From assembly GCA_017650925.1 (NCBI GenBank), contig JAGCDY010000074.1, positions 1-44,838 on the forward strand: a DNA stretch of 44,838 nt, read 5' to 3'. The notes below the pieces were generated by a model. It saw nothing but the letters and a program-made list of their open reading frames with translations, was not told the DNA's origin and ran no database searches. This document shows positions 15,149 to 42,499 of the stretch, piece by piece. This stretch comes from a bacterium (GTDB lineage: Bacteria > Auribacterota > UBA3054). How positions within the stretch are numbered: the first letter of the stretch is position 1; each line of letters begins with the position of its first letter. Position numbers and translations under genes: made by a program.

Positions 15149-15757
15149 ATGAGCGAAGAAAAAAACATAGTTTGGCACAAGCAGAGCGTAGGAAGGACTG
15201 AAAGGGAAACCAAGAACGGTCATTCCGGCTGCGTCTTGTGGTACACCGGGCTTTCCGGCAGCGGAAAATCCACCTTGGCCAACGAAGTCGAAAAAGAGCT
15301 CTTCAGATCCGGCGCGCAAAGCTATCTTCTGGACGGCGACAATGTCCGCCACGGCCTCAACGGCGACCTGGGCTTCAGTGAGGAAGACCGCCGGGAGAAC
15401 ATCAGAAGGATCGGCGAAGTGGCCAAGCTTTTCGCCGATTCCGGGACCATAGTCGGCGTCGCCTTCATCTCCCCCTACCGGGAGGACAGGGAAAGGGCAA
15501 GAAAGATCGTCGAGTCTTCCGGGCTGAAATTTTTGGAGATATACGTGAAGTGCCCGCTCGCGGTCTGCGAGCAGAGGGACCCCAAGGGGCTCTACAAAAA
15601 AGCCCGCGCCGGCGAGATCAAAAACTTCACAGGACTCGACGCTCCCTATGAGGAACCTCAAAATTGTGAGCTCGTCCTGGACAGTTCCCTTCGCTCGCCC
15701 AAGGAACTTTCCCTCGAAGTAATAGGATTTTTAAAACGAATACACATTTTGTTGTAA
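15149..15757 (+). CDS. cysC: Adenylyl-sulfate (APS) kinase
   Basis: Motifs [53 protein letters not shown] and FTGLDAPYE. Confidence 0.96.
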
Positions 15758-15807
15758 AATAAGAGTGAGGGCCCCCGTTACGAACCCCCGGGCCCAAATT
15801 ATAAGAA

Positions 15808-16749
15808 ATGTTCAAATATATTCCCGTTTTAGTTTTGGCTCTGCTTCTTGTCTCATCACTCAACGGCTGCAAGAAGGAAAAGAAGGCGGCACCTGAAACT
15901 GCCAGCGAAGTTAAAGAAACGAAAGACATGGGCGCCAGACCCCAGCGCGCCAAAAAGATCAAAGATACGCTCTCCGGGCTGGAAGAGGCTGACCGCGCCG
16001 CCGCCCTGAAACTTCTGAGAGACGAACACCGCGAACAGAAAAACAAGAAGGATGAAAAGGAAGAGGAAGTCGAGATGACTCCCGGCTTCTTCCCCGTGTC
16101 CGACGGCGCCAGACAACTCATAGACGAGGCCAATCTCCTTTTGCGCCAGGGCGCCGATTCCGACAGCAAGATCGAAGCGCTCGAAAACCTCATAGGAATA
16201 GACCATCCTGACATACTCCCGACCATTGAGCTGGCTCTCGACGACGAAGACCCCGTTGTCAGGGAAGTTGCTCTGGACGCCATCATGAACATCAACAGCG
16301 AGGAAGTCGTCCCCGTAGTCGTGAAAGCCCTCGACGACCCCGAGCCGGATCTCAGGCTCATATCCCTGGACGCCCTGATGGACGTGCAGGGAGAATCCAT
16401 CAACGAAGCGCTCCAGAAAGCCATGAAGGACGAAAATGAGGAAGTCAGGGAAGGCGTGATGGATCTTCTCTTCATCTCCGAAAACCCCGCGGCGCTCCCG
16501 ACCATCAAGACGGCCATTTCCGACTCCAGCCCGACCATCAGGGAAGGCGCGCTGATGTGCATCGAGGACATCAGGGACAAGGGCGCCGTCGACATTCTCA
16601 TCTACGACGGACTTCTCAGCAACTACGAGGACGTCAGGGAAGCGAGCAAAGAAGCCCTTGAGTTCATCACGGACGAGGAGTTCGAGACTTACGACGACGC
16701 CAAGGCCTGGTGGACGAAGAACCGCTCCTCATTCGAGTTCGACTTCTGA
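15808..16749 (+). CDS. HEAT-repeat lipoprotein
   Basis: Signal peptide with lipobox LNGC followed by Lys-rich residues. Tandem repeats ALDDEDPVVREVAL, ALDDPEPDLRLISL, AMKDENEEVREGVM and AISDSSPTIREGAL. Confidence 0.85.
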   Translation: MFKYIPVLVLALLLVSSLNGCKKEKKAAPETASEVKETKDMGARPQRAKKIKDTLSGLEEADRAAALKLLRDEHREQKNKKDEKEEEVEMTPGFFPVSDGARQLIDEANLLLRQGADSDSKIEALENLIGIDHPDILPTIELALDDEDPVVREVALDAIMNINSEEVVPVVVKALDDPEPDLRLISLDALMDVQGESINEALQKAMKDENEEVREGVMDLLFISENPAALPTIKTAISDSSPTIREGALMCIEDIRDKGAVDILIYDGLLSNYEDVREASKEALEFITDEEFETYDDAKAWWTKNRSSFEFDF

Positions 16750-16752
16750 TAA

Positions 16753-18240
16753 ATGAAGATCTCCATAAGCTATCCTCCCCTTCCCAGCGAAAAGGGCGTT
16801 CCCCTTCTCGGACAGAACAGGCAGTTCCAGTACTTCAACAAGCCGACCTACATTTACCCGATGGTCCCGGCTTACGCGGCCAGCCTTTTGAAAGAAGCCG
16901 GCCACGAAGTCTTCTGGCGGGACGGAATAGCGGAGAAAAAAACTTACGAGGAATGGGAACGTGAGCTTATCAAAGCCTCGCCCGACGTCGTGGTCTTCGA
17001 ATCCAAATGCCCCGTCATAGCGAAGCACTGGAAGCTGATCGATTCCCTGAAAGACAAGCTTCCCGAAGCGCTCTTCGTCCTGGTCGGCGACCACGTCACG
17101 GCGGAGCCAATGGAATCTTTTTCCAATTCAAAGGTCGACGTCGTAATATCCGGCGGCGACTACGATTTTCTGCTGCTTGACCTCGCGAATCATCTGGAAA
17201 AAGGAACGCCCCTTCCTCCCGGCTTCTACGTAAGCGAGAAGACAAAAAGGATAAAGGTTGAAAACGCGGAAAACATAGGAGGCGTTTTCTTCACCGGGAA
17301 GCCCATTTTGAACCACGATCTCAATACCCTCCCCTTCATCGACCGCGACCTGACCAAATGGAAGCTCTACGCCTACGAGAACGGCAACTTCAAATTCACC
17401 CCCGGCACTTACGTCTACTCCGGGCGCGACTGCTGGTGGGGAAAGTGCACCTTCTGCGTCTGGGACAACACGCTTAACCCCTGCGGAAGCTACCGCAGCT
17501 TCACCCCGGAAAGGCTTTTCGCGGAAGTAAAATACCTAATAGACACCTATCACGTAAAGGAGATCTTCGACGACGCGGGCAGCATGTTCGCCGGGGACAG
17601 GATGAAAAAATTCTGCCGTCTCCTCATAGAGAGCGGCTACAACAAAAAGGCGGTCTTTGGCTGCAACATGCGCTTCGACGGCATGGACAAGGAAGGCTAC
17701 GAACTGATGAAGCAAGCGAATTTCCGCTTCGTCCTCTTCGGTTTGGAGAGCGGAAACCAAACGACGCTCGACCGCATAAAGAAAGGCATAACCTTGGAGC
17801 AGATAGAAAAAGGCGCCAAGGAATGCAAGGAGGCCGGATTGATGCCTCACGTGACGGTGATGCTCGGATATCCCTGGGAAACCAAGGAAGACGCCGAAAG
17901 GACCGTCGCCTTCGCGAAAAAGCTTTTCAAGCTGGGATACATCGACACCCTGCAGGCCACCGTCTGCATCCCCTATCCCGGCACTCCCCTGCACAGGGAA
18001 TGCAAAGAAAAGGGCTGGCTCATTACGGAGAACTACGAGGACTACGACATGAGGCGTCCCGTCATGAAGTCCCCGCTTGATGAAAAAGAGATCATGCGCC
18101 TCACAAGAGAGATCTACCGCTCCTTCATGAGCCCCGCCTTCATATGGCGCAAAATTATCGGCATTCGCTCGTTTTCCGACATAAAATTCCTCTTTACGGC
18201 CGGCCTTAGGGTTCTGGGACATCTTACTGATTTCAGCTAA
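16753..18240 (+). CDS. B12-binding-domain radical SAM protein
   Basis: N-terminal B12-binding-like region (YAASLLKEAGHEV...VLVGDHVT), cluster motif CWWGKCTFC, FGLESGNQ, MLGYPWET and PYPGTPL. Confidence 0.88.
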   Translation: MKISISYPPLPSEKGVPLLGQNRQFQYFNKPTYIYPMVPAYAASLLKEAGHEVFWRDGIAEKKTYEEWERELIKASPDVVVFESKCPVIAKHWKLIDSLKDKLPEALFVLVGDHVTAEPMESFSNSKVDVVISGGDYDFLLLDLANHLEKGTPLPPGFYVSEKTKRIKVENAENIGGVFFTGKPILNHDLNTLPFIDRDLTKWKLYAYENGNFKFTPGTYVYSGRDCWWGKCTFCVWDNTLNPCGSYRSFTPERLFAEVKYLIDTYHVKEIFDDAGSMFAGDRMKKFCRLLIESGYNKKAVFGCNMRFDGMDKEGYELMKQANFRFVLFGLESGNQTTLDRIKKGITLEQIEKGAKECKEAGLMPHVTVMLGYPWETKEDAERTVAFAKKLFKLGYIDTLQATVCIPYPGTPLHRECKEKGWLITENYEDYDMRRPVMKSPLDEKEIMRLTREIYRSFMSPAFIWRKIIGIRSFSDIKFLFTAGLRVLGHLTDFS

Positions 18241-18354
18241 GATAAATGCCAATCGCCCGATCCCTAAATTTTTGGATTATGTGATGGGCTTGATTTTCGA
18301 TGGCTACTTATAGTATAATTGGACGCTGGTTTTAACAATTTGGGAAAAATCCTA

Positions 18355-21024
18355 ATGAAATCAGTACTCAAAACAATTCTCTTTCTGGGCCTTAGCGCCC
18401 TCTCTGTTCGCTCCGAACTCCCCTCCAATCTCGTCTCAGCCAACTGGATCGAATCCAAAGGCGGCTACATCAACACCGGCATCAATCAGTACGGCTCTTC
18501 CCTTTCCGAACTTGACTGCGTTTTAGAGTTCACCACCCTCAATTATCCCAAGCGGCGCCTTATGGGTTTCAACGGCGCCGGCCCGAAGAACTACGTGGGC
18601 ATCAGCCCCGACAACAAGTTCGACCTCTGGAATGTTTCCCAAACGGAAGCCGAGGCGAACGTCAAATACCATTTGCATCTCACACAGGACCGCGTGGTCG
18701 CCGTGCTCGATATATATAGTTATAACGAAAATCCCGAGAACGAAGTTCTTCTGGAGAAGATGGTCTGCAACGCCAACGGCATCAACAATAGCGAATGCCA
18801 GCTCTTCATCATCGCCTCCAATCCGAACTACCACTGCTACGACGTCAGGCTCTACAACTTCAAGATCCTTCTTGACGGCGAGCTGAAAAGGGATTTCTCC
18901 CCTGTCATGGACATAGAATCCCACAAGGCCGGAATGTATGACAGCGTGAGCGGCGAGACCTTTTACGCCAGCAACGAAGGCAAACTGATCTGTGACGCCA
19001 TGGACTTTTCTTACGGCGAAGGCGAAAGCAAGGTCTGCCCTGACGGCGACACCCTCTACCTCCCCTCCTACGCCGACTACTCCAACCTCGACGCTCTCCG
19101 CTTCCCCGCCGGCACCGTTCTTTCCGGCACCACCGGCGAAAGCCTGACCGTGGGCACGGACGCCCTTGACATGCGCGTGCTTTTCGGCGACGACATGGAA
19201 GCCGGCGAAAGGTATCCTGTGACTGTCAGCTTCCCCTCCGGCGCCGCGACGAGTTTCTTCCTCGCCAAGAGCGCCAACATCCCCGCCCTCTTCGTCAACC
19301 TCGACGCCACAAGCGTTGAGATGATCAACAAGAGCAAAGCCAACCAGGCTTCCGGCGCGGCGCTGAAGATCGCCCCCGACGGCACCGCATCCCCGCTTCT
19401 CGAGGTCAAGAAGTTCGCGGGCCGCGGCAACACGAGCTGGACTTATTCCGGCGACAAAAAACCCTATAAGATCAATCTGGCCGAGAAATACAATTTAATC
19501 GCTTCCAAAAGCCCCAACAAAAAATTCGCCCTGCTCTCCCTTAACCTCCAGGACAGGAAAGACCGCAGCTGTCTCAAGGAATTCGTCGCCCATGAGCTGG
19601 CCGAGTCTATGGACATGAGCTTTGTCCCTGGCATGGAATTCGTCGACCTCTACGTCAACGGTTCCTACCGCGGCATCTATGTCATCAAGGAACGCATAAC
19701 CATCGGGTCCGACAGGATCAACATCCATGAACCGAAATTCCTCTATGAGGACGAAACTTCCACCACGAGAGTGGTGCAGCAAAGCGGCATCAAGGGCGTT
19801 GACGGAGCTTCCGGCGACGAGGGCGACGAGGAGCCATTCAAAGTCTCCAGCTGGAACGTTCCGGCAGCCACCGAGACCATCTTAAGCGAGAACGACGATG
19901 AAGACCCCGCTTTGAAAGCCGGCATCCAGGCTTACCAGTACGCCACCGGCTCACAGCTCCAGGGCGGCAAGGACGGCGGCGTGATCATCGAAATGAACGT
20001 CTGCTATTCCGCCTACTTATATGACGAGCCCAGCTTTTTCATCACCAGGAGAGGCCAGATATTCAACCTGAAGACCTCCGAGTGCGGCACCAAGGGGCAG
20101 GTCCAGAGGATCGCGATCTTCGTGCAGGAAATGGAGGACGCCCTCTTCAGCGAGACCGGCTTCAACGCCAAGGGCAAACACTATTCGAAATACATCGACG
20201 TCGCGAGCATGGCCAAGCATGTGGCTCTGGACGGCTTCATGGCCAACTCCGACTTCTGCATCATCAGCACTTACTTCTACATCGACGCCGATCCCACTAC
20301 CGGCGAATATATCGGAAAGCTTAAAGCTGAGCCGGTCTGGGACTACGATTTCGCCCAGGTCAATTCCAACCATGTCTACGTCAACAGCCAAAGCAGGATG
20401 TGCTACGTTCCCCACTTCTTCGGCAAGGCGGACTTCGTCAAGGCTCTCTATGAGATCCAGAAAGACGAGAACGGCTTCACTAAGAGAATCGCCGAACTGA
20501 ACGGCGGCGAACTGGACGATCTGGCCGCTAAGCTTATGCCCACCTACAAACTGAATTTCCTCAGATGGGGCAGCGACTCCGTATTCGACAGCGAAGTCCT
20601 CAGGAACAGCATGAGGACCAGAGAGGCCAGCTGGAACAGCCTCTGGAAACCGGATACACAGCTCCTGGGCGCCTGGGTGGACGAAGCCCCCGCTCCCCAG
20701 TATTCCTTCTTCTCCTTCAACGCTTCCGAATCCGCTGACATTTCCGTCTTCAATTACGGCACCGCCGGCGAATACCAGTGGTACAAGCTTGATGAGGAAG
20801 ACAACTCCCTGAAAGCCATCGAGGGCGAGACGGAAGCGACCATAGATCCCACCTATTACGGCAAAGGCGAATACGTCTGCGCCATCAGCGGCGTCAACCT
20901 GGAGCCCCAGGCCGGCGGTCAGAACGTGACGCTCTACACCGCTCCCTTTGTTTTCGGCGCTCCGGAGCCCGGAATGATCGGAATGCTCCTTGCCGCGGCG
21001 GCTTTTTTGCTTCGCAGAAAGTGA
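18355..21024 (+). CDS. Secreted CotH-family kinase with PEP-CTERM sorting signal (paralog 1)
   Basis: Signal peptide from ATG 18355. CotH motifs GRGNTSW..KKPYKI, VDLYVNGSYRGIY..KE, NSD..STYFY and PVWDYD. Ig-like YQWYK...G.Y.C. Tail APEPGMIGMLLAAAAFLLRRK. Confidence 0.85.
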   Translation: MKSVLKTILFLGLSALSVRSELPSNLVSANWIESKGGYINTGINQYGSSLSELDCVLEFTTLNYPKRRLMGFNGAGPKNYVGISPDNKFDLWNVSQTEAEANVKYHLHLTQDRVVAVLDIYSYNENPENEVLLEKMVCNANGINNSECQLFIIASNPNYHCYDVRLYNFKILLDGELKRDFSPVMDIESHKAGMYDSVSGETFYASNEGKLICDAMDFSYGEGESKVCPDGDTLYLPSYADYSNLDALRFPAGTVLSGTTGESLTVGTDALDMRVLFGDDMEAGERYPVTVSFPSGAATSFFLAKSANIPALFVNLDATSVEMINKSKANQASGAALKIAPDGTASPLLEVKKFAGRGNTSWTYSGDKKPYKINLAEKYNLIASKSPNKKFALLSLNLQDRKDRSCLKEFVAHELAESMDMSFVPGMEFVDLYVNGSYRGIYVIKERITIGSDRINIHEPKFLYEDETSTTRVVQQSGIKGVDGASGDEGDEEPFKVSSWNVPAATETILSENDDEDPALKAGIQAYQYATGSQLQGGKDGGVIIEMNVCYSAYLYDEPSFFITRRGQIFNLKTSECGTKGQVQRIAIFVQEMEDALFSETGFNAKGKHYSKYIDVASMAKHVALDGFMANSDFCIISTYFYIDADPTTGEYIGKLKAEPVWDYDFAQVNSNHVYVNSQSRMCYVPHFFGKADFVKALYEIQKDENGFTKRIAELNGGELDDLAAKLMPTYKLNFLRWGSDSVFDSEVLRNSMRTREASWNSLWKPDTQLLGAWVDEAPAPQYSFFSFNASESADISVFNYGTAGEYQWYKLDEEDNSLKAIEGETEATIDPTYYGKGEYVCAISGVNLEPQAGGQNVTLYTAPFVFGAPEPGMIGMLLAAAAFLLRRK

Positions 21025-21032
21025 TCGCTCTG

Positions 21033-21070
21033 CAAAAATGCCCCCGGCTCAAACCGGGGGCTTTTTGTTT
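21033..21070 (+). terminator. Rho-independent terminator after CotH paralog 1
   Basis: GCCCCCGG-ctcaaa-CCGGGGGC stem followed by TTTTTGTTT and preceded by AAAAA. Confidence 0.85.
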
Positions 21071-21076
21071 GACAAT

Positions 21077-21105
21077 TTGCTTTTTCCCCTTAAAAGAAAT
21101 AAAAT
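21077..21105 (+). promoter_or_regulatory. Putative sigma70 promoter for CotH paralog 2
   Basis: TTGCTT-N17-TAAAAT about 30 nt upstream of ATG 21137. Confidence 0.45.
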
Positions 21106-21136
21106 TTTAGACAAGAGATATCGCCGTAAAAGCCGC

Positions 21137-23779
21137 ATGGAAACCCAAAAGATCATAATATCCGTCCTTTTCCTCGCCTGCTGCGCCCTTGGCGCCAGAT
21201 GCGAGCTACCCAATGGCCTTGCTCCCGCAAACTGGATCGAGACCAGGGGCGGATACATCCCCACGGGCATAACCCAATCCGGCGCGACGACGGTCGAGCT
21301 TGACTGTCTTCTGGAAGTCACCTCTCTCTACTATTCGAAAAGACGCCTGATGGGTTTTGACGGCGCCGGTCCCAAGAACTATTTCGGCGTGACCACCAAC
21401 AATCATTTCGAGATCTGGAACCCCACCGTCCTTACAGCCGAATTAGGCGTCAAATACCGCCTGCACATGACCCAGAACAAGACCACCACCCTGCTGGAAG
21501 TCTTCTCCGAGGCAGGCGCGCTCCTAGATTCCGTTACCGGCAACGCCAAGGGCATCAACAGCAGCGAATGCCAGATCTTCACCATCAACTCAAGCTCCGC
21601 CTACACCTGCTACGGAATTAGAGTCTACGATTTCAAGATCATAATAGACGGAGACGTCAAAAGGGACCTCGTCCCGGTCTTCGACTATACGGCGGGAAAG
21701 CCAGGCATGTACGACAGCGTCAGCCAAACAACGCTCTACGCCTACGGCAGCGGCAAGCTTGACTGCGACGCCCTTGATTTTCACTACGGTTCCGGTGACA
21801 CCAAGATATTGCTTGAAGAGGGAGCCATGTATTTCCCCTCCCACATCGGCTTCGAAGACCTCGGCGAATTTTCCTTCCCGGAGGGCACCGTTTTGAGAGG
21901 GACCGAAGAGGGAGCCAGCCTGACCGTGGGCGAAGACACTCTGGATATGCGGACCATTTTCGGCGCTGACATGCGTCCCGGGGAAAGGTATCCCCTTAGC
22001 GTGGAATTCACCTTCGGCCTGGTGACGAATTTCTATATCGCAAAAAGCGCAAACATTCCTTCGCTTTTCGTGAACCTTATAGACGCCGATCTGGCTTTCA
22101 TACACAGGAACAAGAAAAACGAAGCCGCCGCCGTCGCCCTGAAGATCGAGCCTGACGGAACTTCCTCCGAGCTTCTCCCTGTCAAAAAGTTCGCCGGCCG
22201 CGGCAACGCCACCTGGACTTATTCCGGCGACAAGAAGCCCTACAAGATCAACCTGGAATCGAAATACGCCCTCATATCCTCCGCCCCCAAAAGCAAAAAA
22301 TTCGCCCTGCTCTCCCTGAACCTTCAAAACAACAAGGACCGCAGCGGGCTCAAGGAATACGCGGCCCACGAGCTGGGAGACGCCATGGGCATGGGCTTCA
22401 ATCCTGACTCTGAATTTGTTGACCTTTACGTCAACGGTTCGTACCGCGGCTTCTACATGATAAAAGAACGCGTGACCATCGATCCCGACAGGATCAACAT
22501 CAACGAGCCGAAATACAGTTTTGAGGACGAGGAGTCCACCACAAGAGTCGTTCAGCGAAACGGCATCAAGGGCGTCAAAGGCGCCGCGGGCGATCCCGAC
22601 GACGGCGAGCCCGTCTCAGCCTCCAGCTGGAACGTCCCCTCCCCCACGGAGACGATCACGAGCGAGAACGACGATGATGATCCCGCGCTCAAGGCCGGGA
22701 TCCAGGCTTACCAATACGCCACAGGTTCCCGCCTGAAAGCCGGGAAGGAAGGCGGCGCGGTCATCGAGATGAACGCCTGCTACGGCCAATACATGCAGGA
22801 TGAGCACGTCTTCTTCATCACCAGGCGCGGCCAGATCTTCACCCTGAAGATCCCCGAAGTCGCAACGAAGGAACAGGTCCGGAGGATCGCAATCTTCGTC
22901 CAGGAATTTGAAGACGCCCTCTTCGGGGAAAAAGGTTTCAACTCGCTTGGCAAACATTATTCCGAATATCTGGACGTAGAGAGCATGGCCAAGCACGTGA
23001 TGGTGGACGGCTTCATGTACAACTCGGATTTCTGCATCCTCTCCACCTTCTTCTACATCGACGCCGATTCCGTAAGCGGTGAATTAAGGGGCAAACTCAT
23101 AGCCGAGCCCATCTGGGATTACGATTTCGCCCAGATCAATTCCAGCCATATCTACGCCTCCAATTCCAATCCCATGAACTATCTGCCGCAATTCTTTTCC
23201 AAGGCTGATTTCATAAAGGCCCTGTACGAATTGCAAACGGATCCTTATGGTTTCCAATCAAGAGTCGCGCGGCTGAATTCCAACGACCTTTCCGCTCTGG
23301 GCGACAAGCTCCAGGCCGCGCATCAATTGAATTATTTCCGCTGGGGCAGCGATTCCCAATCAGACGTGGCGACCATCAAAAGCAGGATGAGCTCGAGAGC
23401 GGGAAACTGGAACAATATTTTCAACCCGAACCAAAAGCTTTTGGGCGCCTGGGTGGAACAGGCCCAAACAAGGTCCCGCGCTATAAGCGGCCCGCTGACC
23501 GTGGAGACCTACGGCACGCCGATATCGTACCAATGGTACAAGCAGGACGCTGAGAGTGGCGAATTGACTGAGCTTGAGGGCGAGACAGGCTCAACTCTTG
23601 ATCAGGAACAGTACGGCAAGGGACAGTACGTCTGCGGCGTCTACGGAAAAAATCTGGAGCCTCAGGCGGGCGGAACGTACGTGACGCTTTACACCGCGCC
23701 TTTCGCCTACGGACTTCCGGAGCCAGGCTTACTCGCTGCGCTTCTTGCCGCCGCGGCCTTTCTACTCCGCAGGAAGTGA
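21137..23779 (+). CDS. Secreted CotH-family kinase with PEP-CTERM sorting signal (paralog 2)
   Basis: Signal peptide METQKIIISVLFLACCALGA from ATG 21137. Colinear with paralog 1 (GRGNATW..KKPYKI, VDLYVNGSYRGFY, NSD, PIWDYD). Tail LPEPGLLAALLAAAAFLLRRK. Confidence 0.85.
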   Translation: METQKIIISVLFLACCALGARCELPNGLAPANWIETRGGYIPTGITQSGATTVELDCLLEVTSLYYSKRRLMGFDGAGPKNYFGVTTNNHFEIWNPTVLTAELGVKYRLHMTQNKTTTLLEVFSEAGALLDSVTGNAKGINSSECQIFTINSSSAYTCYGIRVYDFKIIIDGDVKRDLVPVFDYTAGKPGMYDSVSQTTLYAYGSGKLDCDALDFHYGSGDTKILLEEGAMYFPSHIGFEDLGEFSFPEGTVLRGTEEGASLTVGEDTLDMRTIFGADMRPGERYPLSVEFTFGLVTNFYIAKSANIPSLFVNLIDADLAFIHRNKKNEAAAVALKIEPDGTSSELLPVKKFAGRGNATWTYSGDKKPYKINLESKYALISSAPKSKKFALLSLNLQNNKDRSGLKEYAAHELGDAMGMGFNPDSEFVDLYVNGSYRGFYMIKERVTIDPDRININEPKYSFEDEESTTRVVQRNGIKGVKGAAGDPDDGEPVSASSWNVPSPTETITSENDDDDPALKAGIQAYQYATGSRLKAGKEGGAVIEMNACYGQYMQDEHVFFITRRGQIFTLKIPEVATKEQVRRIAIFVQEFEDALFGEKGFNSLGKHYSEYLDVESMAKHVMVDGFMYNSDFCILSTFFYIDADSVSGELRGKLIAEPIWDYDFAQINSSHIYASNSNPMNYLPQFFSKADFIKALYELQTDPYGFQSRVARLNSNDLSALGDKLQAAHQLNYFRWGSDSQSDVATIKSRMSSRAGNWNNIFNPNQKLLGAWVEQAQTRSRAISGPLTVETYGTPISYQWYKQDAESGELTELEGETGSTLDQEQYGKGQYVCGVYGKNLEPQAGGTYVTLYTAPFAYGLPEPGLLAALLAAAAFLLRRK

Positions 23780-23788: not shown

Positions 23789-23877
23789 TTTGTCGAGGAC
23801 GAAAAAAGTCATGCTCCCGTAAGCAAACTTAGCGAAGCCTGTTTGCCAAGGGAACATGACTTTTCGTCCGAGACAAA
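23789..23877. repeat. Long imperfect inverted repeat between convergent genes (bidirectional terminator or REP/MITE-like element)
   Basis: Left arm TTTGTCgaGGACGAAAAaaGTCATGcTCCCgtaaGCAAAC pairs with right arm GTTTGCcaaGGGAaCATGACTTTTCGTCCgaGACAAA around a 12-nt loop. Confidence 0.8.
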
Positions 23878-25938: not shown

Positions 25939-28539
25939 TTATTTTGATTTATTGGTCAGGTATCTTATTATCTTATCAAAAAGGTACGTCCCGAAGACAT
26001 TGTTCGGGAATCCCGAGGCTTCCCTGCCTCTTCCTCCGGAAAGTTTGAGCGTCGTAGCGATGAGCGTTCCCTTCCCGTAGGAATATTCCGCCAGGTACTC
26101 CGCAGCTTTCCAGTTTCTAGCGTCGCAGCGCCTCAATACGGGGTGTTTCATGGAGAAGCCCGTATCTGATACCTCTTTTGCGCATATGGCCCTTTCCGGG
26201 GCGACTGAGAAGTATCTGAGGTCCTCCGTGAAGCCGGAGCGCTTAAGCCCGGAAAAAATGGGATGCGGATAACTCACGGGGAAACTCTCGCGCCAGAAAG
26301 AGACCTCCTCCGTCGGGAAAGCGGGATCGCTCCCCTGCATAAGGAAAACCTTCCCTCCCTCGCGGAGGAATTTCCTGACAAACTCGTCAAGCTGGTCCGT
26401 TACGATGATCTTCGCCCCTTCCTTCACGCCTTTCATTCCCCTGAAAACGCTGGTGTGGTCTCTGAGCAGAAAGTTTTCGCTTCCTGTTTTCGGTTTGGGA
26501 TAAACGAAGATCGGCCAGAAATTGCTGTAATTCCCAAGACTGGCCGTCAGTTTCAGGTTGGCAGGGGCGGACACTTCCGGAAGGATCGCGTTGAAATAAC
26601 AGACTTCCTTTATTTCGCCTCTTTCTACTTTCGGCAGCAGGCGCTCCTCCCACAGGATCAGCTTTTCGTTATCGTCGCGCAGTTCCAGCCGCAGGGTCTC
26701 CCCTTGAAGATCGGACCCGGAGTAATTGGAGAGAAGGATGTGCAGATCGTAGGGAGCGCCGCTCCAGAAGCTGTAGCGGTCTTTCGGGCAGACGCGGTCG
26801 CCGCAGATCCAGGTCCTTCTCAGATCCCAAGCGGGCAAAAGCACCACGTCGCTGTTGAAACGGATGAATTCCTCGGGCGGGAATTTCATGTTGCCCAAGT
26901 CGTCGAAGAGTCCGCTGGTCGCGATCGGAACATCCCTTATCGCGGTTATGTCGTAGCCCGAGATCTCCCTGTAGCTCCGCGTCTCTTCCACGGTCACTTT
27001 GCGGTGTGTCAGGGCATGGTCTGCCGAGGCCGCCCTTAATTTTTCAAAGTCTTTCCTTAAATCTTTAAACACCTTCTCGAAGGTGTCGAGATAGAAATCA
27101 GGTTTCAGTTTTTTTATGGGATTGCTTTTAACGTTCCCGCTTTCCCACCAGAGGGAAGACGCCTTTTTCCCCTCCCTGACTTTTTTCAGGTTCCTTAAGG
27201 TATCGCTGTCGCAGTATTCGCCGAAGAGCCAGGGTTTCCCGGCGCGGTACGACGGCGTGAAATGATCGATTAGGTCCTCCATGTTCTGGAGTTCCCCGTA
27301 GAAATGATAGTCGAAGAAATCGCCGTAGGATACTTTCAATCCGCCGTAGCATTCGCCGGAACCGGAATTGTCTTTTACGGGAACGCCGAGCTTCTTTTTC
27401 AGTTTGAGATACGTCTCCTTCAGGATGTCCGCTTTGACAACGGAATTCATCTCGCAGCCCAAAGTCAGAAGGGCGACGCAGGGGTGTCCCAAGAGTTCCC
27501 CGCCAATGGCGTCGTACTCTCTTCTGATCCTGCTCTCCAATTCGGGACTCGCTTCGGGAAGCCACAAAGGAAACTCTATCCAGCAGAGCATCCCCTCTTC
27601 GTCGCAGATGTCGAGGTATTTTTTGCGCGGGATGTAGAGGCAGTGCTTTACGGCGTTGAAGCCCATTTTTTTGAGAGCCCTCACTTCGGCGCGGATGGCG
27701 TCCTCAACAGGATTCGGCGCGATAATTTCGTCGTAGAAGCCCCAGTGAAGGATCCCCCGCCAATAGATAGGATCCCCGTTGAGGAGCAGCGCATTGTCCT
27801 TGCAGCAGATCTCCCGGCGCGCCCAAAAGGTCTTGCCTTCCAAGCGGTCTTTGGCGCCTTTTATTTTGAAACTTATCTCATAGCGTTTGGGGTTTTCGGG
27901 AGACCATTTCTCCATCCGGCCGGAATTCAGCGGGACCACTATCTCTCTAGTGCCTTTTTTCAGCTCCCACTTCCCTCTTATTTCCCTGAGTCCTTTTATC
28001 TTCCCTTCCAGGTAATAGACGCCTTCTTTTTTTATTTCCAGTTCGAGTTTCAGCGAACAGTTGTCGGCGTAACAGCGGTTAAGAAGCGCTTCGTCATAGC
28101 CCTCCAAGGTTATATCGTCCCAGATCCCGCCGAATGTGCAGCAGACGTCCGGCACGAAACCGGAGAGCACTTTTCTCAGAGGATACGGGTCGCCGTCGTA
28201 ATAGCCTGGCTTGGCGATTTTGAAAACAAGCTCGTTCTCGCCGTCAACTAGGAAGCGCGTGACGTCGAAAGAAAATTCATTCCACAAACCTTCATGGGCG
28301 CCGACCTTCCTTCCGTTGAGTGTGATCTCGCAAAAGTAGCTGACGGCCTTGCAGCGCAGAAGGTAAAATTTGAAACGCTTCTTAAGGGAAAAAGTTTTTT
28401 TCAGCGTGAAGAAGCCGCCGAAGTCTTTTCTTTCCGTAAATCTCTCGACCGCGCCGGGAACCCTCACCGCGAATTTTTCGCCGTCCATATTGGCCTGCCA
28501 GACGCCTCCGAGATCGATGATGTTCGAAATGATCTTCAT
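25939..28539 (-). CDS. Glycoside hydrolase family 2-like protein
   Basis: Motifs IDLGGVW, LNGRKVGAHEG, FDVT..L..GENEL, GGIWDDI, WSPENPKRY, LLNGDPIYWRG, KKMGFNAV, CDEEGML, HP.V...LGCE and GEY. No signal peptide. Confidence 0.85.
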   Translation of the reverse strand: MKIISNIIDLGGVWQANMDGEKFAVRVPGAVERFTERKDFGGFFTLKKTFSLKKRFKFYLLRCKAVSYFCEITLNGRKVGAHEGLWNEFSFDVTRFLVDGENELVFKIAKPGYYDGDPYPLRKVLSGFVPDVCCTFGGIWDDITLEGYDEALLNRCYADNCSLKLELEIKKEGVYYLEGKIKGLREIRGKWELKKGTREIVVPLNSGRMEKWSPENPKRYEISFKIKGAKDRLEGKTFWARREICCKDNALLLNGDPIYWRGILHWGFYDEIIAPNPVEDAIRAEVRALKKMGFNAVKHCLYIPRKKYLDICDEEGMLCWIEFPLWLPEASPELESRIRREYDAIGGELLGHPCVALLTLGCEMNSVVKADILKETYLKLKKKLGVPVKDNSGSGECYGGLKVSYGDFFDYHFYGELQNMEDLIDHFTPSYRAGKPWLFGEYCDSDTLRNLKKVREGKKASSLWWESGNVKSNPIKKLKPDFYLDTFEKVFKDLRKDFEKLRAASADHALTHRKVTVEETRSYREISGYDITAIRDVPIATSGLFDDLGNMKFPPEEFIRFNSDVVLLPAWDLRRTWICGDRVCPKDRYSFWSGAPYDLHILLSNYSGSDLQGETLRLELRDDNEKLILWEERLLPKVERGEIKEVCYFNAILPEVSAPANLKLTASLGNYSNFWPIFVYPKPKTGSENFLLRDHTSVFRGMKGVKEGAKIIVTDQLDEFVRKFLREGGKVFLMQGSDPAFPTEEVSFWRESFPVSYPHPIFSGLKRSGFTEDLRYFSVAPERAICAKEVSDTGFSMKHPVLRRCDARNWKAAEYLAEYSYGKGTLIATTLKLSGGRGREASGFPNNVFGTYLFDKIIRYLTNKSK

Positions 28540-29958: not shown

Positions 29959-30450
29959 TTAAATAATTTCTTCCCAGATCATGGAAAGCGCCTCCATGAT
30001 CGTCAAATGCCTGATGTCTTCCCTGCTGCCCTTGAAGTGGAAGCATTTCGTCTTCGTCTCGTAAGACAGCGCAATTCCGATCCAGACGGTCCCGACGGGA
30101 TTGTCAGAACCGTCGCCGTCCGGGCCGGCGATGCCGGTTATAGAGACAGCAAGATCCGTGTCGAAAATTCTCCTTGCCCCTTCGGCCATGGCGGCCGCGC
30201 ATTCCTTGCTTACGGCGCCTTTCTCGGAAAGGATCTCCTCGCTCACTCCCAGAAGGCCCGTTTTGATCTCGTTCTGGTAAGCTACCGCCGAACCCTTGAA
30301 CCAGGAGGAGCTGCCGGGAACGGAGACGAAGCAGGCGGAAAGGCCTCCGCCGGTGCAGGACTCAGCGGTGCTGATAGTCACGCCCCTGAACTTCATGGCT
30401 TCCCCGATCTTGGCAGCCTGTTCTGTTTCCCTCGGCCCGTAGATCATCAT
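29959..30450 (-). CDS. pncC: Nicotinamide-nucleotide amidohydrolase (CinA C-terminal domain/PncC)
   Basis: Motifs TAESCTGG, VPGSS, GAVS, AMAEGAR, SITGIAGPDG and PVGTVWI. Classic position upstream of recA. Confidence 0.9.
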   Translation of the reverse strand: MMIYGPRETEQAAKIGEAMKFRGVTISTAESCTGGGLSACFVSVPGSSSWFKGSAVAYQNEIKTGLLGVSEEILSEKGAVSKECAAAMAEGARRIFDTDLAVSITGIAGPDGDGSDNPVGTVWIGIALSYETKTKCFHFKGSREDIRHLTIMEALSMIWEEII

Positions 30451-32987
30451 TCCGCCGCCTCACTTAGAACATTGGTGACGGCCGGCTGCCAGGAATCGAG
30501 CGCAACTGCCACGCCAAGCTCCCGGTCGTCCGCGAAACCATAGTGCCTCGGCATCCATTGCCTGGAGGCTATCAGTTCCACCAGGTTGGTCTTTCTCAAA
30601 GGAATGTCATCCGGTATGTCATACTCAAAAGAGCGCCACAGTTTGTCGGCCAAAACCACAGTGTCAAGATAATGGCCGTTTACGTAGATCGCCGCTGACA
30701 GAGGATAATAGCGCAGGAAAGGATTGCCCGCCCTCAGTTTCAGCCTGAAGTCGCGGCGGTTACCCAAATACTCGAAATGGGCCTGTGCCTTCGTCCAGGA
30801 GAAGACTACGCCCCTGGGATCGGTCTCCTTGTTGTAAAAACCGCCTTCCGGGTCTTTTTCTTTGTGCCAGCGGATATTGCTCATGGCTACGCCCAGAGTC
30901 CTCTCGTCCCCCGGTACGCCGTAGTCGCAGGGGCTCCAGGTCTTCTCGCACGCGAGGCGGAAAGTCACGCACTGGTCGGCCACCGAGTCGAAAGGCAGGG
31001 CATATCCGACAGGCACCGTCACCTTGCAGGCTTCTCCGGGAGCTGAAAGCATAACGTTCGTCAAGGCTTCGCCGTTGACAAAGACGGTGACCTTCTGCGG
31101 ATCCTCCGTAAGTTTCGGGAAATTGCTGATCAGTTCGAAGGAAGCGTAGTTGTTCATTTTCTTGACGCACAAGACGCCGTTCTTGCCGCACCATCTCCAG
31201 GGCCTGGATTGGGCGTGCCAGTTTTCCCAGGCGAAGAATCCCTCCTCGCCGACGGCGCCGATGGAAGCCCTTCTCCGCTCGCTGTTGAGGTCTTTAGAGT
31301 TCAGTTCGCGATAATACAGGAAAGAGGCGCCGGACAAGAGCAGGACGCCTATGAAAGCCATCATCCTGGCCTCGTTGTGAAGCCTTATGAAGGAGCGTGA
31401 CCGGGAACCGAGATAAGCAAGAGAAAAGCCCAGGAGAATATGCCAGGAGACGTTCACTTCCATCACTTCCTGGTGCACGCCGAGGAAAAGGAGCGTCGCG
31501 AAAACGGGAAGCGGCAGGAAAACAGTCCAGAGCTTGGCAAGCTCCTCTTCCTCGCCCCGCAGCTTCAGCCAGGCCGCGGCGAAAGAAAGGAATACGCCGC
31601 CCATGAAAAGCAAAAGGCCGATCATTCCGAAAAGGCCGCTCTCCGCCTTGACTTGCAGATAAAAGTTACAGGCGTTGTCCGGGGCCCTCAGATTCTCCTC
31701 CTCGTACTTGGCGAAATTGGGAAGCTCCACGACGAAGCTGCCGATGCCCACGCCGGACGGCCAGGTCCTCTCCGCGGTCAGCTGGGCGTACCTCGGGTAT
31801 AGCTGGCGCCTGCCGTCGTTGAAGATCCTCAGTATGCTGCCGGAATTCCTTATGCTGCGGATGTCCTTTTTCAGCCTTCTCTGCAAGGCCGGGCTTTTCG
31901 TCGTCCCCGTCAGGATCGTGTCGGCCTTCTTAACAAGGAACATGCTGTACATCCCCGCGCCGCTCGCCAAAACTATGAGAGCGAGCGCGACGATCGCGAC
32001 CCTGACGAGCGGCCGCGCCCTGAGGACGGTCTTGGTGTTGATGAAAAAGCCGACCGCGAAAAGGAAAATTGCGACCACGATCGCGAGGAAACCGCTGCGG
32101 GAACCGGAAAAATTGATGCCGAAAACGCAGAGAACGAGCCAGACCAGAAGGAGCGCGGGCCAAACGTAGCCTTTCTCCTTTTTCCAGGAGGCAAGAAAAG
32201 CCAGACCGAAAGAAAAAGCCAATCCCAAAACCACTCCGAGAGCGTTGGGATCCTGGCAGGTCCCGTTCACTCTTCCCATCCTTACCCAATAGAAGGAGCG
32301 GTTGGCGCAGAACTCGATGGAAAAATAGCGTTGGAAAAAAGCCGCCGCGAGGGCTATGGTGCAGCCAGCGGCGAAAAACAGCCACATCCTGAAATAGAAC
32401 TTCAATATGTTCCTTCCCGCCCTCTCCTCAAGGTTCGCCAGACGGTGGGCGAAGGGGATCAGCATCAATCCGGCGATCAACTGGGTGGCGTTGAAGGTGA
32501 TGTATATCAGCGCCTTTTCCCTGGTCCATTCCTTGTCGTTGACTATCTGCGAGAAAAAAGCCTTGTTGCCGAGGACCCAGTCCGGGGCGTAGCGGGTGAC
32601 GCTGGCAAATATGCCGATAAGAGCGACGAAAAGCCAGAGCGTCCATCCTATGTGGCCGGGAAAAGGCTCGTAAGCCTCCTTCGAAAAGAGCTCGTGCCAG
32701 CAAAGTCCCGAAAGGACGGCCAGAAGGACGAAGACGTGCATCGGATGCGTGCTGCCTCCGGTGGCGAGCAAAGGAATGGCGACCAAAAAGGGCGCCGTGA
32801 AAAGCAGAAGGGAAAAAGCCCACTTAGGCCGCCACAGGGCAAAAACGAAGCCCAAGAACGCAAGGGAGACGAGAGGCGGCCAGACGAAGACGTTGCCGGG
32901 GGCGAACCGGCTGTAAAGAGCCGCGTCCCACCCCAAGAAGAGCGAGCCCAGAAGGAACAGCGAAACTTTACACACCAAGTTAACCAT
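30447..32987 (-). CDS. O-antigen ligase (Wzy_C/WaaL)-family membrane protein with two C-terminal extracytoplasmic repeats
   Basis: Many TM segments. Motifs RVNGTCQDPNALG, FSGSRSG, P.GVGIGSF and NACNFYLQVKAESGLFG. Duplicated soluble C-terminal domain. Confidence 0.8.
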   Translation of the reverse strand: MVNLVCKVSLFLLGSLFLGWDAALYSRFAPGNVFVWPPLVSLAFLGFVFALWRPKWAFSLLLFTAPFLVAIPLLATGGSTHPMHVFVLLAVLSGLCWHELFSKEAYEPFPGHIGWTLWLFVALIGIFASVTRYAPDWVLGNKAFFSQIVNDKEWTREKALIYITFNATQLIAGLMLIPFAHRLANLEERAGRNILKFYFRMWLFFAAGCTIALAAAFFQRYFSIEFCANRSFYWVRMGRVNGTCQDPNALGVVLGLAFSFGLAFLASWKKEKGYVWPALLLVWLVLCVFGINFSGSRSGFLAIVVAIFLFAVGFFINTKTVLRARPLVRVAIVALALIVLASGAGMYSMFLVKKADTILTGTTKSPALQRRLKKDIRSIRNSGSILRIFNDGRRQLYPRYAQLTAERTWPSGVGIGSFVVELPNFAKYEEENLRAPDNACNFYLQVKAESGLFGMIGLLLFMGGVFLSFAAAWLKLRGEEEELAKLWTVFLPLPVFATLLFLGVHQEVMEVNVSWHILLGFSLAYLGSRSRSFIRLHNEARMMAFIGVLLLSGASFLYYRELNSKDLNSERRRASIGAVGEEGFFAWENWHAQSRPWRWCGKNGVLCVKKMNNYASFELISNFPKLTEDPQKVTVFVNGEALTNVMLSAPGEACKVTVPVGYALPFDSVADQCVTFRLACEKTWSPCDYGVPGDERTLGVAMSNIRWHKEKDPEGGFYNKETDPRGVVFSWTKAQAHFEYLGNRRDFRLKLRAGNPFLRYYPLSAAIYVNGHYLDTVVLADKLWRSFEYDIPDDIPLRKTNLVELIASRQWMPRHYGFADDRELGVAVALDSWQPAVTNVLSEAAE

Positions 32988-34666: not shown

Positions 34667-36094
34667 ATGACGACTTTTCTCATCGGTCTGGGAATACTTA
34701 TTTTCGGCGGCGCCCTCTACGGCCGCTTCATGGAAAGATTTTTCGGCGTTGAAGACAGGCCGACTCCCGCGATAGTAAAAAACGACGGCAAGGAATACGT
34801 TCCGATGCCGACCTGGAAATGCGCGCTCGTCCATCTTCTCAACATCGCCGGCACAGGACCGGTGCTGGGGCCCATCCTGGGCATTATTTTCGGCCCAATA
34901 GTCTTCATAACCATTCCCCTAGGCTGCGTATTCGCCGGGGCCGTGCACGACTATATGATCGGCATGATCTCGATCAGGGAGGACGGTGCGCAGATGCAGG
35001 ATCTCGTGAACAAGTACCTCGGGAGGCACATAGCGCTGCTCTTCGACGTCTTCATCTGCCTTATGGCGCTGCTGGTGGTCGTCACTTTCACCTACTCCCC
35101 CGGCGATATCGTGGTCACAAGTTTCCTGAACAAGGAAGCGGATGTTGGCACTTACCAGACATGGGTAGCTTATGCCGTGATCTTCATATATTATCTTTTG
35201 GCCACCTACATGCCGATAGACAAGCTGATCGGCAGAGTCTATCCCGTCATTGGCAGCCTTTTCATCCTTTCGGCCGTTATCATCTTCGCCCTGATCTTCC
35301 TGAAGAAACTGCCGCTGGAAGAACTCAGCTGGGCCAACTGGCGCGGAAAAGAAGCCAACATGATCCCCCTCTTTTTCGTGACCGTGGCCTGCGGCATAGC
35401 CTCGGGCTTCCATTCCACACAGGCGACCTTGATCGCCCGTTCCGTAAAGCATGAAAGATGCGGCCGCAAGGTCTTCTTCAATATGATGCTGGTCGAGGGC
35501 TTCATCGCCATGATCTGGGCGGCCGTCGCCATGGGCGTCGCGGCAAAATTTGAGCTCAGCAACCCCAAAGACGCCAACTTGACGCTGGTGGAGATCATAA
35601 GATTTCTCCTGGGCAGCAAATTTGGCATCATCGTCATGGCCGGATTCATAGTTCTGCCCATAACCACGGGCGGCACGACCATGCGCGTCCTGCGCATCAT
35701 AATGAGCGAGCTGCTGAAAATAAAAAAAGAAAATCTTCTCGGCAAGATCCTGCTGGGCGCATTCATAGTGATCGCTTCGCTCTCCCTGCTCCTTTTCGTG
35801 AAGTTCCAGCCGGACGGCTTCCAAATGATCTGGCGGTATTTCGCCTGGAGCAACCAGATCATCGTGGTCTTTACCCTGGCGGTCGTGACGGCCTATATGG
35901 TTCGGCAAAAGAAACTCATCGTTTTCACGGTCCTGCCGGGCGCTTTTTATCTGTTCGTGGTGTCAAGTTTCATTTTGCACGCCGAATTCGGATTCAATCT
36001 CAGCTGGGACAAATCCTATCTTATCTCCGGCCTGCTCTCGCTGGCTTTCATAGGCTATTTCAGTTGGAAAAAATATTTAACAAGGAAGGCATGA
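34667..36094 (+). CDS. cstA: Carbon starvation protein A family transporter (paralog 1)
   Basis: Motifs TPA...DG..YVPM, LLNIAGTGP, GCVFAGAVHDY, TVACGIASGFHSTQ, EGFIAMIWA and WRYFAWSNQ. Confidence 0.9.
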   Translation: MTTFLIGLGILIFGGALYGRFMERFFGVEDRPTPAIVKNDGKEYVPMPTWKCALVHLLNIAGTGPVLGPILGIIFGPIVFITIPLGCVFAGAVHDYMIGMISIREDGAQMQDLVNKYLGRHIALLFDVFICLMALLVVVTFTYSPGDIVVTSFLNKEADVGTYQTWVAYAVIFIYYLLATYMPIDKLIGRVYPVIGSLFILSAVIIFALIFLKKLPLEELSWANWRGKEANMIPLFFVTVACGIASGFHSTQATLIARSVKHERCGRKVFFNMMLVEGFIAMIWAAVAMGVAAKFELSNPKDANLTLVEIIRFLLGSKFGIIVMAGFIVLPITTGGTTMRVLRIIMSELLKIKKENLLGKILLGAFIVIASLSLLLFVKFQPDGFQMIWRYFAWSNQIIVVFTLAVVTAYMVRQKKLIVFTVLPGAFYLFVVSSFILHAEFGFNLSWDKSYLISGLLSLAFIGYFSWKKYLTRKA

Positions 36095-36095
36095 C

Positions 36096-37598
36096 ATGTG
36101 GACGTTTCTTACCGGTCTGGTGATCTTGGGCGTAGGCGGCTGTCTTTACGGCAGCTTCGTTGAACGTTTCTTCGGCGTCAGCGATAAACCGACGCCGGCC
36201 GTTACGAAAGCTGACGGCGTGGACTACGTTCCCATGTCAAGCTGGCGCAACGGGCTTATCCACCTTCTTAACATAGCCGGGACCGGCCCCATACTGGGAC
36301 CCATCCAGGGCATTCTCTTCGGGCCGATGGCCTTCATCACCATCCCCCTGGGCTGCATCCTGGCAGGCGCGGTCCAGGACTACATGATCGGCATGATCTC
36401 CACAAGGAATGACGGCGAGCAGATCGAGAGTCTGGTGAAACGCTTCCTCGGCAAACACGTGGCTTTCTACTTCGGCATCTTCGTCCTCCTGGCGGTATTG
36501 CTGTTCGGCGTGACCTGCGTCTACACTCCGGGCGACATCTTCGTAAAAGGCGTGCTCAAGAAGAGCGCTGAAATCAACAGTTGGTATCTTTGGGTGGTTT
36601 ACGGTGTGATCTTCGGCTACTATCTCATCGCCACCCTGCTCCCCATCGACAAGATCATCGGCAGAGTTTACCCCTTCATCGGGGGCTTCTTCATCTTCAC
36701 GGCCATTTTGCTCTTTGTTTACATTTTCGCGGAAAAACTTCCCCTGAAAGAGCTTGACCCCTCCAGCTTGTGGAGTTGGAAACAAGACCCGGTAAATAAA
36801 TTCTTCCCCATCTTCTTCGTGACAGTCGCCTGCGGCATCGCGAGCGGTTTCCACGCCACCCAGGCCACCATCATCTCCCGCACCTTGACGCATGAAAGGG
36901 AAGGCCGCAAAATATTCTACAACATGATGCTCGTGGAAGGTTTTATCGCCATGATCTGGGCGGCCGTCACCATGGGCGTGATCGAGCTCTACGACATAAA
37001 TACCACCGAAAACGCCACGAACATGCTGGCCGAGATCATCGACGACGTTCTCAAGGTCTTCAATATCGACAACTCTTCCCCCCACGATGACCTCGTCTAC
37101 GTTGTCGGCAAACTCTTCTCCAACGGCATCGACATAGTGGTCATCCTAGGCGTCATCGTCCTGCCCATTACCAGCGGCGACACGGCGCTCCGAAGCTGCC
37201 GCCTGATGGCCGGCGAAATGCTTGGCGTCGACCAGAGCAAACCAGAAAACCGCCTAAAATTGGGCGCCGCCATCTTCGCTCTGACCGCCGTTCTCCTTTT
37301 CGTCGCCAAATTAAGCAACAGCGGCTTCCAGCTTCTCTGGCGCTACTTCGCCTGGGCCAACCAGACGATCGTGGTCTTCTCTTTGGCTGTGGCCACCGCC
37401 TGGTGCATCAAGGAGGGCAAGTCCATCTGGGTCACGGTGCTGCCGGGCGCCTTTTACCTGACCGTCACTTCCTCCTTCATACTGAGCGCCCCGATCGGTT
37501 TCAACCTGCACTGGCTGGTAGCTGACATCATCGCCGCGGTCCTCGCTTTGGCCTACATCATCTACTTCGTCAATCTGAAGAAAAAAACTTCCCTTTAA
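36096..37598 (+). CDS. cstA: Carbon starvation protein A family transporter (paralog 2)
   Basis: Motifs DGVDYVPM, LLNIAGTGPILGPIQG, ACGIASGFHATQ, PITSGDTALRS and WRYFAWANQT. Confidence 0.92.
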   Translation: MWTFLTGLVILGVGGCLYGSFVERFFGVSDKPTPAVTKADGVDYVPMSSWRNGLIHLLNIAGTGPILGPIQGILFGPMAFITIPLGCILAGAVQDYMIGMISTRNDGEQIESLVKRFLGKHVAFYFGIFVLLAVLLFGVTCVYTPGDIFVKGVLKKSAEINSWYLWVVYGVIFGYYLIATLLPIDKIIGRVYPFIGGFFIFTAILLFVYIFAEKLPLKELDPSSLWSWKQDPVNKFFPIFFVTVACGIASGFHATQATIISRTLTHEREGRKIFYNMMLVEGFIAMIWAAVTMGVIELYDINTTENATNMLAEIIDDVLKVFNIDNSSPHDDLVYVVGKLFSNGIDIVVILGVIVLPITSGDTALRSCRLMAGEMLGVDQSKPENRLKLGAAIFALTAVLLFVAKLSNSGFQLLWRYFAWANQTIVVFSLAVATAWCIKEGKSIWVTVLPGAFYLTVTSSFILSAPIGFNLHWLVADIIAAVLALAYIIYFVNLKKKTSL

Positions 37599-42325: not shown

Positions 42326-42346
42326 CTATCCCATAAAAATTTGAGC

Positions 42347-42421: not shown

Positions 42422-42426
42422 TTAAT

Positions 42427-42463: not shown

Positions 42464-42499
42464 GCTAGAATAGTAATAAATAAAGTTAAGGATGCCGCT

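Follow-up and report, generated by a model that had tools for sequence, protein, structure and literature searches.

The 44,838-nucleotide contig JAGCDY010000074.1 of assembly GCA_017650925.1 (Auribacterota, UBA3054), analysed over its full length and called the window below, carries two adjacent genes, A and B, whose predicted products are exported-type paralogs of the CotH family. As read from their sequences, both have a complete set of the catalytic and family-conserved positions of that family, and both end in a PEP-CTERM-type tail. We hold with moderate confidence that A and B arose by tandem duplication and encode exported CotH-family proteins with an atypical kinase fold. Kinase activity of CotH has been proven only in the mother cell of Bacillus, and the CotH proteins that many bacteria and anaerobic fungi export to their surfaces or cellulosomes have no defined function. 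The locus adds a candidate case of extracellular CotH in a different envelope setting, that of the PEP-CTERM tail and the exosortase.

A tandem pair of exported-type CotH proteins

Gene A lies at 18355-21024 on the forward strand and encodes 889 amino acids (aa); gene B lies at 21137-23779 on the same strand and encodes 880 aa. The start of each gene was taken as the first ATG after the upstream stop codon. The pair was first described in a sequence-only reading of the window, which spoke of two colinear paralogs of about 880 to 890 aa, and this description is borne out. The two proteins share one architecture and align colinearly at 59% identity from end to end (523/889 positions with 13 gaps in the pairwise alignment). 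A basic N-terminus and, after it, a run of hydrophobic residues can be seen by eye in A, in B and in other members of their clade, and we take this as a putative Sec signal peptide. In A it would cover residues 1-19 (18355-18411, forward strand; MKSVLKTILFLGLSALSVR).

The CotH domain and its active site

The Pfam CotH profile (PF08757) scores 63.8 bits against A and 59.8 bits against B, both above its gathering cut-off of 23.8. An insertion divides the match into two stretches, at profile positions 4-98 and 131-265. The first stretch is the N-terminal lobe of the domain, residues 346-457 of A (19390-19725, forward strand), which contains GRGN at 356-359, the lysine pair K368/K369 and E446. The second is the C-terminal lobe, residues 572-770 (20068-20664, forward strand), which contains N631-S-D633 and W662-D663-Y-D665. 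The acidic insertion that separates them, judged against the family profile, is 66 residues long (A 467-532; 19753-19950, forward strand); it occurs in 25 of the 186 outside relatives and is strongly conserved inside the clade. The kinase motifs that had been picked out from the letters are all present in both proteins. In A they are GRGNxxW at 356-362, KKPYKI at 368-373, YRGxY..KE at 438-446, NSD at 631-633 and WDYD at 662-665.

The link to a known structure comes from a profile, A3, built from 36 CotH sequences with the kinase region of A placed first. It matches Bacillus cereus spore coat protein H (5jd9_A) with an E-value of 1.4e-12 over chain residues 50-356. This alignment puts K368/K369 of A on EKK, E446 on QLES, N631-S-D633 on NFD and W662-D663-Y-D665 on WDYD of 5jd9. 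The equivalents of D633 and D663 in B are D631 and D661 by pairwise offset. Freitas et al. 2020 (PMC7821199) report that substitution mutants of D228 and D251 in Bacillus subtilis CotH are catalytically inactive. The two aspartates of 5jd9 stand 23 residues apart, the same spacing as D228-D251. D633 and D663 would be the equivalents of D228 (catalytic) and D251 (metal-binding), the B. subtilis numbering being carried over by spacing only.

Conservation points the same way. We call a position family-conserved if the residue of A is found in at least 80% of 186 sequences from outside the clade (pooled CotH matches), which gives 43 positions. B retains 42 of the 43, the sole change being G334A, and in 12 of the 14 other clade members the count is 41 or more and both D633 and D663 are kept. 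Mean column identity within the clade is highest in the kinase N-lobe (0.84), against 0.73 for the N-terminal domain and 0.62 for the Ig-like region. The Pfam score, the profile alignment to 5jd9 and the conservation across the family all support the view that A and B belong to the CotH family and keep its catalytic residues.

Several observations weigh against taking these proteins for working kinases. Direct phmmer searches of the PDB with A, or with its kinase region, gave no match; a search with the CotH domain of another gene of this genome, on contig C79, gave none either. Two further profiles, A1 and A2, failed to reach 5JD9 in the PDB, A1 finding nothing and A2 only a weak Ig-like match. 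The kinase fold and the catalytic geometry are predicted from sequence-profile alignment. Clade members P0013 and P0014 have an asparagine at the catalytic aspartate position (D633N), so catalysis may be dispensable in part of the family. No functionally linked neighbour and no candidate substrate gene was found. A scan of the genome for Ser/Lys/Arg-rich substrates like CotB and CotG returned only spurious short frames. We also know of no ATP source outside the cytoplasm. Finally, extracellular CotH proteins are described in PMC12774918 as having no defined function, and according to PMC8665504 a binding role has been proposed for them.

A quite different reading is that A and B are surface adhesins or structural proteins in which the CotH fold has no kinase role and serves as a scaffold or to bind plant wall, host or microbial surfaces. 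The literature just cited on cellulosomal CotH, with its suggestion that such proteins may bind the plant cell wall, suits this reading, as do the lack of an obvious extracellular ATP supply and the D633N substitution in P0013 and P0014. The flanking domains are lectin-like (a lead only) and Ig-like (a weak match), and there are relatives with CBM6, CBM35 or CBM26. CotH is also the most diverged gene of its syntenic block, with 56-64% identity vs 73-99% for its neighbours, as is typical of exposed surface proteins. Against it, the catalytic positions are kept in A, B and 12 of the 14 other clade members at roughly 50-60% overall identity, and the kinase N-lobe is the most conserved region. We believe this pattern argues that it is the active site, and not a binding face, that has been under selection. 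Because the conservation is centred on the active site at about 50-60% overall identity, we favour a catalytic role, which has in our opinion an even chance of being right, over a purely adhesive or structural one, which is possible but rather unlikely.

The tails and the exosortase

The C-terminal tail of A lies at 20959-21021 (forward strand) and consists of PEP, a hydrophobic helix and RRK before the stop; the protein ends APEPGMIGMLLAAAAFLLRRK. That of B lies at 23717-23776 (forward strand) and ends LPEPGLLAALLAAAAFLLRRK right before the stop codon. The genome from which the window comes (G000; 1.98 Mb in 135 contigs, 89.7% complete) has 6603 stop-bounded frames with a length of 100 aa or more. 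A PEP motif followed by a hydrophobic run and a basic end is found in 67 of them; the controls gave 2 (reversed tail) and 0 (internal). A and B are typical members of this set.

The search for an exosortase and for other PEP-CTERM proteins, which the sequence-only reading had pointed to, returned one exosortase gene besides the 67 tailed frames. The gene is on contig C53 (25387-27447, reverse strand; locus L020:6388-8448) and encodes 687 aa, with an EpsH-type domain, a long linker and an EpsI/DUF3485-like C-terminal domain. Its PF09721 match scores 119.6 bits at 26539-27357, and the exo_archaeo signature TIGR04178 scores 57.9 bits vs a cut-off of 23. Together with the tripartite layout at the stop codon, the exosortase and the 67 tailed frames uphold the identification of the tails of A and B as PEP-CTERM-type.

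The genome has five CotH genes and all five encode PEP-type tails. Apart from A and B there is a second tandem pair on contig C79 (12503-19023, reverse strand; locus L018), with LTD, CHB_HEX_C/Fn3_assoc and CotH domains before the PEP tail. The fifth gene, on contig C14, encodes a protein of 1859 aa with three LTD domains, CotH, LamG_3 and a PEP-type tail. The PEP tail is not special to A and B; it is the general sorting signal of the organism, here applied to CotH proteins of two subfamilies. As a separate observation, the tailed frames (on contigs C20, C99, C77, C12, C81, C105 and C13, among others) include many for very large proteins, the longest of about 1860 aa, and several form tandem families. 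Exosortase cargo makes up an unusually large share of this small genome.

The PEP-CTERM profile itself (TIGR02595, cut-off 16 bits) gave a split result. In the six-frame genome search A and B score 20.9 and 17.9 bits, above the cut-off, and in the whole-protein scan they score 15.2 and 12.2 bits, below it. The lower scores count against our reading, and so does the fact that the exosortase reaches the cut-off of no named Xrt subtype (the best is XrtD, 134 bits vs 400). It could be that the tail is a plain membrane anchor, or that A and B are periplasmic, with no display at the surface; the whole-protein scores are in keeping with this. However, the tails belong to a genome-wide set of 67 with the exact PEP, helix and basic C-terminal layout, an exosortase is present, and TIGR02595 is above its cut-off in the six-frame search. 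We give the absence of display only a slight chance.

Flanking domains and relatives

Residues 20-232 of A (18412-19050, forward strand) form an N-terminal domain found only in the genus-level clade. None of the 186 outside relatives aligns to it, it has no Pfam match at E<=10, its best PHROGs match reaches only E 0.094, and no standalone homolog of 117-373 aa was found. It is possibly ConA/LamG-like. By ESM-Atlas features its nearest neighbours are unnamed phage clusters (0.94), followed by Laminin_G_3 clusters (0.91), which is a lead only. We pursued the phage link and rejected it: no relative was found among viral contigs, the locus lies amid housekeeping genes, and a phage collection gave just two weak partial tblastn matches, both to short unannotated records.

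Between this domain and the kinase lobes lies a pre-kinase domain, residues 233-345 (19051-19389, forward strand), which has no Pfam match and is common to part of the outside relatives. Seventy-one of the 186 outside sequences align to it over at least 60 residues, and the outside matches start at about residue 230. On the other side of the kinase, residues 771-866 (20665-20952, forward strand) form a putative Ig-like domain. It too has no Pfam match; a weak profile match links it to 9ncf_S, an 'Immunoglobulin-like domain protein' (E 0.0024), and 40 of the 186 outside relatives align to it. Overall, CotH is the sole family that Pfam finds in A and B even at E<=1, with no dockerin module.

Full-length relatives of A are few. 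They fall into 14 clusters at 49-98% identity, and the next matches are at E 1e-31. Among 1.84 billion representatives, which were searched exhaustively, one full-length representative of A was found; the other matches begin at about residue 230, the top-ranked of them with 33-40% identity over 230-870. At E<=1e-20 the family of A is present in all nine genomes of the same genus, the window's own included, and was found in none of 32 further genomes from the same order or phylum. The family is confined to one genus of uncultured ruminant-gut bacteria. The related loci are recorded as metagenome-assembled genomes from ruminant gut, one of them labelled candidate phylum UBP3, and one ortholog, P0015, has already been named 'CotH kinase family protein' by NCBI. 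Metagenome scans with P0013 and P0014 for the genomic context of distant members found nothing.

The tail is found in 13 of 14 clade proteins, the fourteenth being a truncated partial sequence, and in 0 of 149 outside representatives and 0 of 38 distant matches. We scanned 23 outside relatives with Pfam, the top-ranked ones and some chosen by tail, and found CotH in 23, SLH in 8, Dockerin_1 in 5 and CBM6, CBM35 or CBM26 in 4. It looks as though the family derives from SLH- or dockerin-anchored CotH proteins of Gram-positive gut anaerobes, with the anchor replaced by the generic PEP-CTERM tail. For the C79-type paralog, 19 of 120 homologs are PEP-tailed, all within the 44 best matches (47-90% identical to the C79 query). 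These tailed homologs outrank nearly all of the LTD-CotH proteins labelled Planctomycetota (Phycisphaerae), which end differently.

A and B might be active phosphotransferases that modify a glycan or some other non-protein molecule, such as the cell's own exopolysaccharide or a plant polysaccharide, rather than a protein. Some kinase-fold relatives, such as Fam20B, phosphorylate sugars. The relatives of A join CotH with carbohydrate-binding modules, the N-terminal domain resembles ConA/LamG lectins by language-model features (again only as a lead), and PEP-CTERM systems have been linked to the making of exopolysaccharide (Haft 2006, cited by PMC6491731). However, the characterised CotH enzymes are only Ser/Thr protein kinases (PMC7821199), and nothing in the window ties A and B to a polysaccharide locus, the nearby GH35/42 and GH2-like genes being convergent and on the other strand. 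We consider a glycan or other non-protein substrate quite unlikely.

Duplication and neighbourhood

Two CotH copies at this locus are found only in G000, G001 and G003 (the corresponding loci of the latter genomes being L009 and L010); the other genomes of the genus have one. The single copies resemble B (62-64% identity) more than A (56%). In a quick tree the clade forms one group against six outgroup sequences (SH-aLRT 100). Its five subgroups come out in unresolved order, so the tree gives no order of duplication; the stem of A is long, 0.5 vs 0.15 for B. The duplication that gave rise to the A and B paralogs is recent. In G001 the ortholog of A is split into two frames near residues 754-770 (L009:8259-8402; G001:C102:8141-10898), through either a frameshift or an assembly error.

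In the genomes of the genus the pair sits in a syntenic block: AsnRS, APS kinase, HEAT, B12-radical-SAM, CotH, GH35/42, GH2-like, RecA. The last three genes are on the strand opposite to CotH, and the glycosidase genes are convergent with it. CotH is the gene of this block that has diverged most. This gene order is kept only within the genus, which weakens it as a sign of a functional link. We rejected a link to the upstream APS kinase, HEAT and B12-radical-SAM genes on this ground, and a link to the downstream GH35/42 and GH2-like genes because these are also convergent and on the other strand.

A few observations on the surrounding genes may be recorded here. An APS kinase, a HEAT-repeat protein and a B12-binding radical SAM protein are encoded directly upstream of A (15149-18240). 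The APS kinase is 73-82% identical between genomes vs 95-98% for the adjacent AsnRS, which suggests a mosaic region. Further along, an 846-aa protein (30447-32987, reverse strand) whose sole Pfam match is a Wzy_C/O-antigen-ligase domain adjoins cinA and recA. Two adjacent open reading frames of 475 and 500 aa (34667-37598) match CstA, one mainly to the N-terminal and the other to the C-terminal part of the profile; they may be a split or duplicated carbon-starvation transporter. At 42341-44836 an open reading frame of more than 832 aa runs off the end of the window and has no Pfam match at E<=1e-5.

Intergenic signals and expression

The sequence-only reading placed a terminator and a separate promoter between A and B and concluded that the two genes are expressed independently. 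The terminator holds up well. A GC-rich hairpin with a T-run at 21040-21071 (forward strand) is like an intrinsic terminator on both strands. The hairpin at 21040-21061 has an 8-bp all-GC stem followed by TTTTTGTTTG, and it folds at -24.9 kcal/mol (z -4.5), with 0 of 200 shuffles as stable. Another terminator, a bidirectional one, is likely between B and the convergent GH35/42 gene, where nested inverted repeats at 23789-23877 have arms of 17 nt (88% complementary) and 15 nt (93%).

The promoter before B could not be confirmed. A sigma-70 scan gave no site between A and B, with the caveat that the sigma-70 consensus may differ from that of this phylum, and over the region as a whole it gave 3 sites vs 2.6 expected from shuffles. 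A TTGACA can be seen by eye at 21069-21074, without an acceptable -10 hexamer 16-18 nt downstream. Upstream of A there is a sigma-70-like match at 18290-18319 (forward strand), TTGATT-18-TATAAT, which agrees with the consensus at 10 of 12 positions and is weak evidence. Contigs from four RNA-library runs (three studies) map to stretches of both genes with at least 95% identity. DNA may be present in such libraries, so this is a weak hint that A and B are transcribed. No RNA contig spans the intergenic region; contigs cannot reveal transcript ends or operon structure, and gaps between them are uninformative on separate transcripts. Independent expression of the two genes therefore finds no support in these data.

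A proposed function

We propose the following course of events for A and B as surface phosphotransferases. Each protein would be made with an N-terminal Sec signal peptide (putative) and a C-terminal PEP-CTERM tail, as their sequences read. After export the tail would hold it in the inner membrane. The single exosortase would then cleave at PEP and pass the protein to the cell surface or the exopolymer layer, by analogy with exosortase/archaeosortase systems. There the CotH domain may transfer phosphate to a target that is extracellular or on the surface, and the clade-specific N-terminal domain, perhaps with the Ig-like domain, would supply the targeting. The nearest relatives pair carbohydrate-binding modules with CotH, which suggests a similar targeting role for the flanking domains of A and B. 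Since relatives carry carbohydrate-binding and wall- or cellulosome-anchoring modules and the habitat is the rumen, plant fibre or the cell's own envelope is a plausible target. For both proteins we infer export by Sec, processing by exosortase, display at the surface and phosphotransfer there. That they phosphorylate envelope proteins or glycans outside the cell can only be surmised.

The fullest form of this idea makes A and B true ecto-kinases. Displayed on a diderm surface by exosortase, they would draw on extracellular ATP or some other donor in the rumen, and reach a surface or plant-fibre target through genus-specific lectin-like N-terminal domains, the duplication having led to two specificities. 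We think it unlikely that all of this is correct. If it were, the locus would be a compact two-gene system and a tractable entry to the role of extracellular CotH, cellulosomal CotH included. The idea restates an existing question about extracellular CotH and opens no new kind of system. It is important to realize, though, that the conserved active site, the recent duplication and the same tail on every CotH gene strengthen the view that extracellular CotH is selected for catalysis. The organism is uncultured and the function is inferred, and we regard A and B as candidates for biochemical tests.

Comparison with known systems

CotH enzymes have been characterised only from the Bacillus spore coat, where they are Ser/Thr protein kinases, as described in PMC7821199. 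A and B belong to the same Pfam family as Bacillus CotH (5JD9/5JDA) and keep the lysine pair, the glutamate, the NxD aspartate and WDYD. Bacillus CotH is about 360 aa long, has no signal peptide and works within the mother cell, with its supply of ATP. A and B, in contrast, are 880-889 aa long and of exported type. They have three further domains (N-terminal, pre-kinase and Ig-like), a kinase domain with a 66-aa insertion and a PEP-CTERM tail, and unlike in Bacillus no substrate resembling CotB or CotG was found in their genome.

A and B can also be set beside the cellulosomal and wall-anchored CotH proteins of Gram-positive anaerobes and anaerobic fungi. Cthe_0044 (CseP) and Cthe_0239 of Clostridium thermocellum are listed as cellulosomal CotH proteins in PMC6083626, and Ccel_1101 of Ruminiclostridium cellulolyticum is another, in a group described as without defined function by PMC12774918, for whose authors kinase activity would be unexpected in an extracellular protein of the cellulosome. 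Plant cell wall binding has been speculated, according to PMC8665504, and fungal cellulosomal CotH kinases were expressed in a 2023 study cited by the review PMC12484212. Like these proteins, A and B are of secreted type, would be surface-attached and come from a fibre-degrading gut or rumen-type habitat, and their nearest outside relatives carry SLH, dockerin and CBM modules. The anchor is different: a PEP-CTERM tail with an exosortase instead of a dockerin or SLH. The N-terminal domain of A and B also has no counterpart outside the genus.

Within the genome, the two C79 proteins and the C14 protein resemble A and B in joining CotH to a PEP-CTERM tail, and the C79 pair is also in tandem. They differ in belonging to another CotH subfamily, with lamin-tail domains (and CHB_HEX_C/Fn3_assoc in the C79 pair) and an unbroken CotH match. 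The Planctomycetota LTD-CotH homologs of the C79 proteins are without PEP tails.

As a sorting system the arrangement is like that described for PEP-CTERM and exosortase by Haft et al. 2006, with a tripartite C-terminal tail, many paralogous substrates and one exosortase gene. It departs from the described systems in its exosortase, a 687-aa EpsI-like fusion below the cut-off of every named Xrt subtype, and no CotH-type cargo is described in the PEP-CTERM/exosortase literature that we searched. Our search for literature combining CotH with PEP-CTERM or exosortase found none in the papers covered, the two text matches being author surnames in reference lists. The claim that this combination had not been characterised stands to the extent that no paper we found joins the two. 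It does not stand for the broader concept, since extracellular, surface-attached CotH is known from cellulosomes, as the passages on it in PMC12484212, PMC6083626, PMC12774918 and PMC8665504 make clear. What is new here is the type of anchor and the genus-specific N-terminal domain. The features particular to this locus are the anchor, that domain, the conserved 66-residue insertion and the recent tandem duplication.

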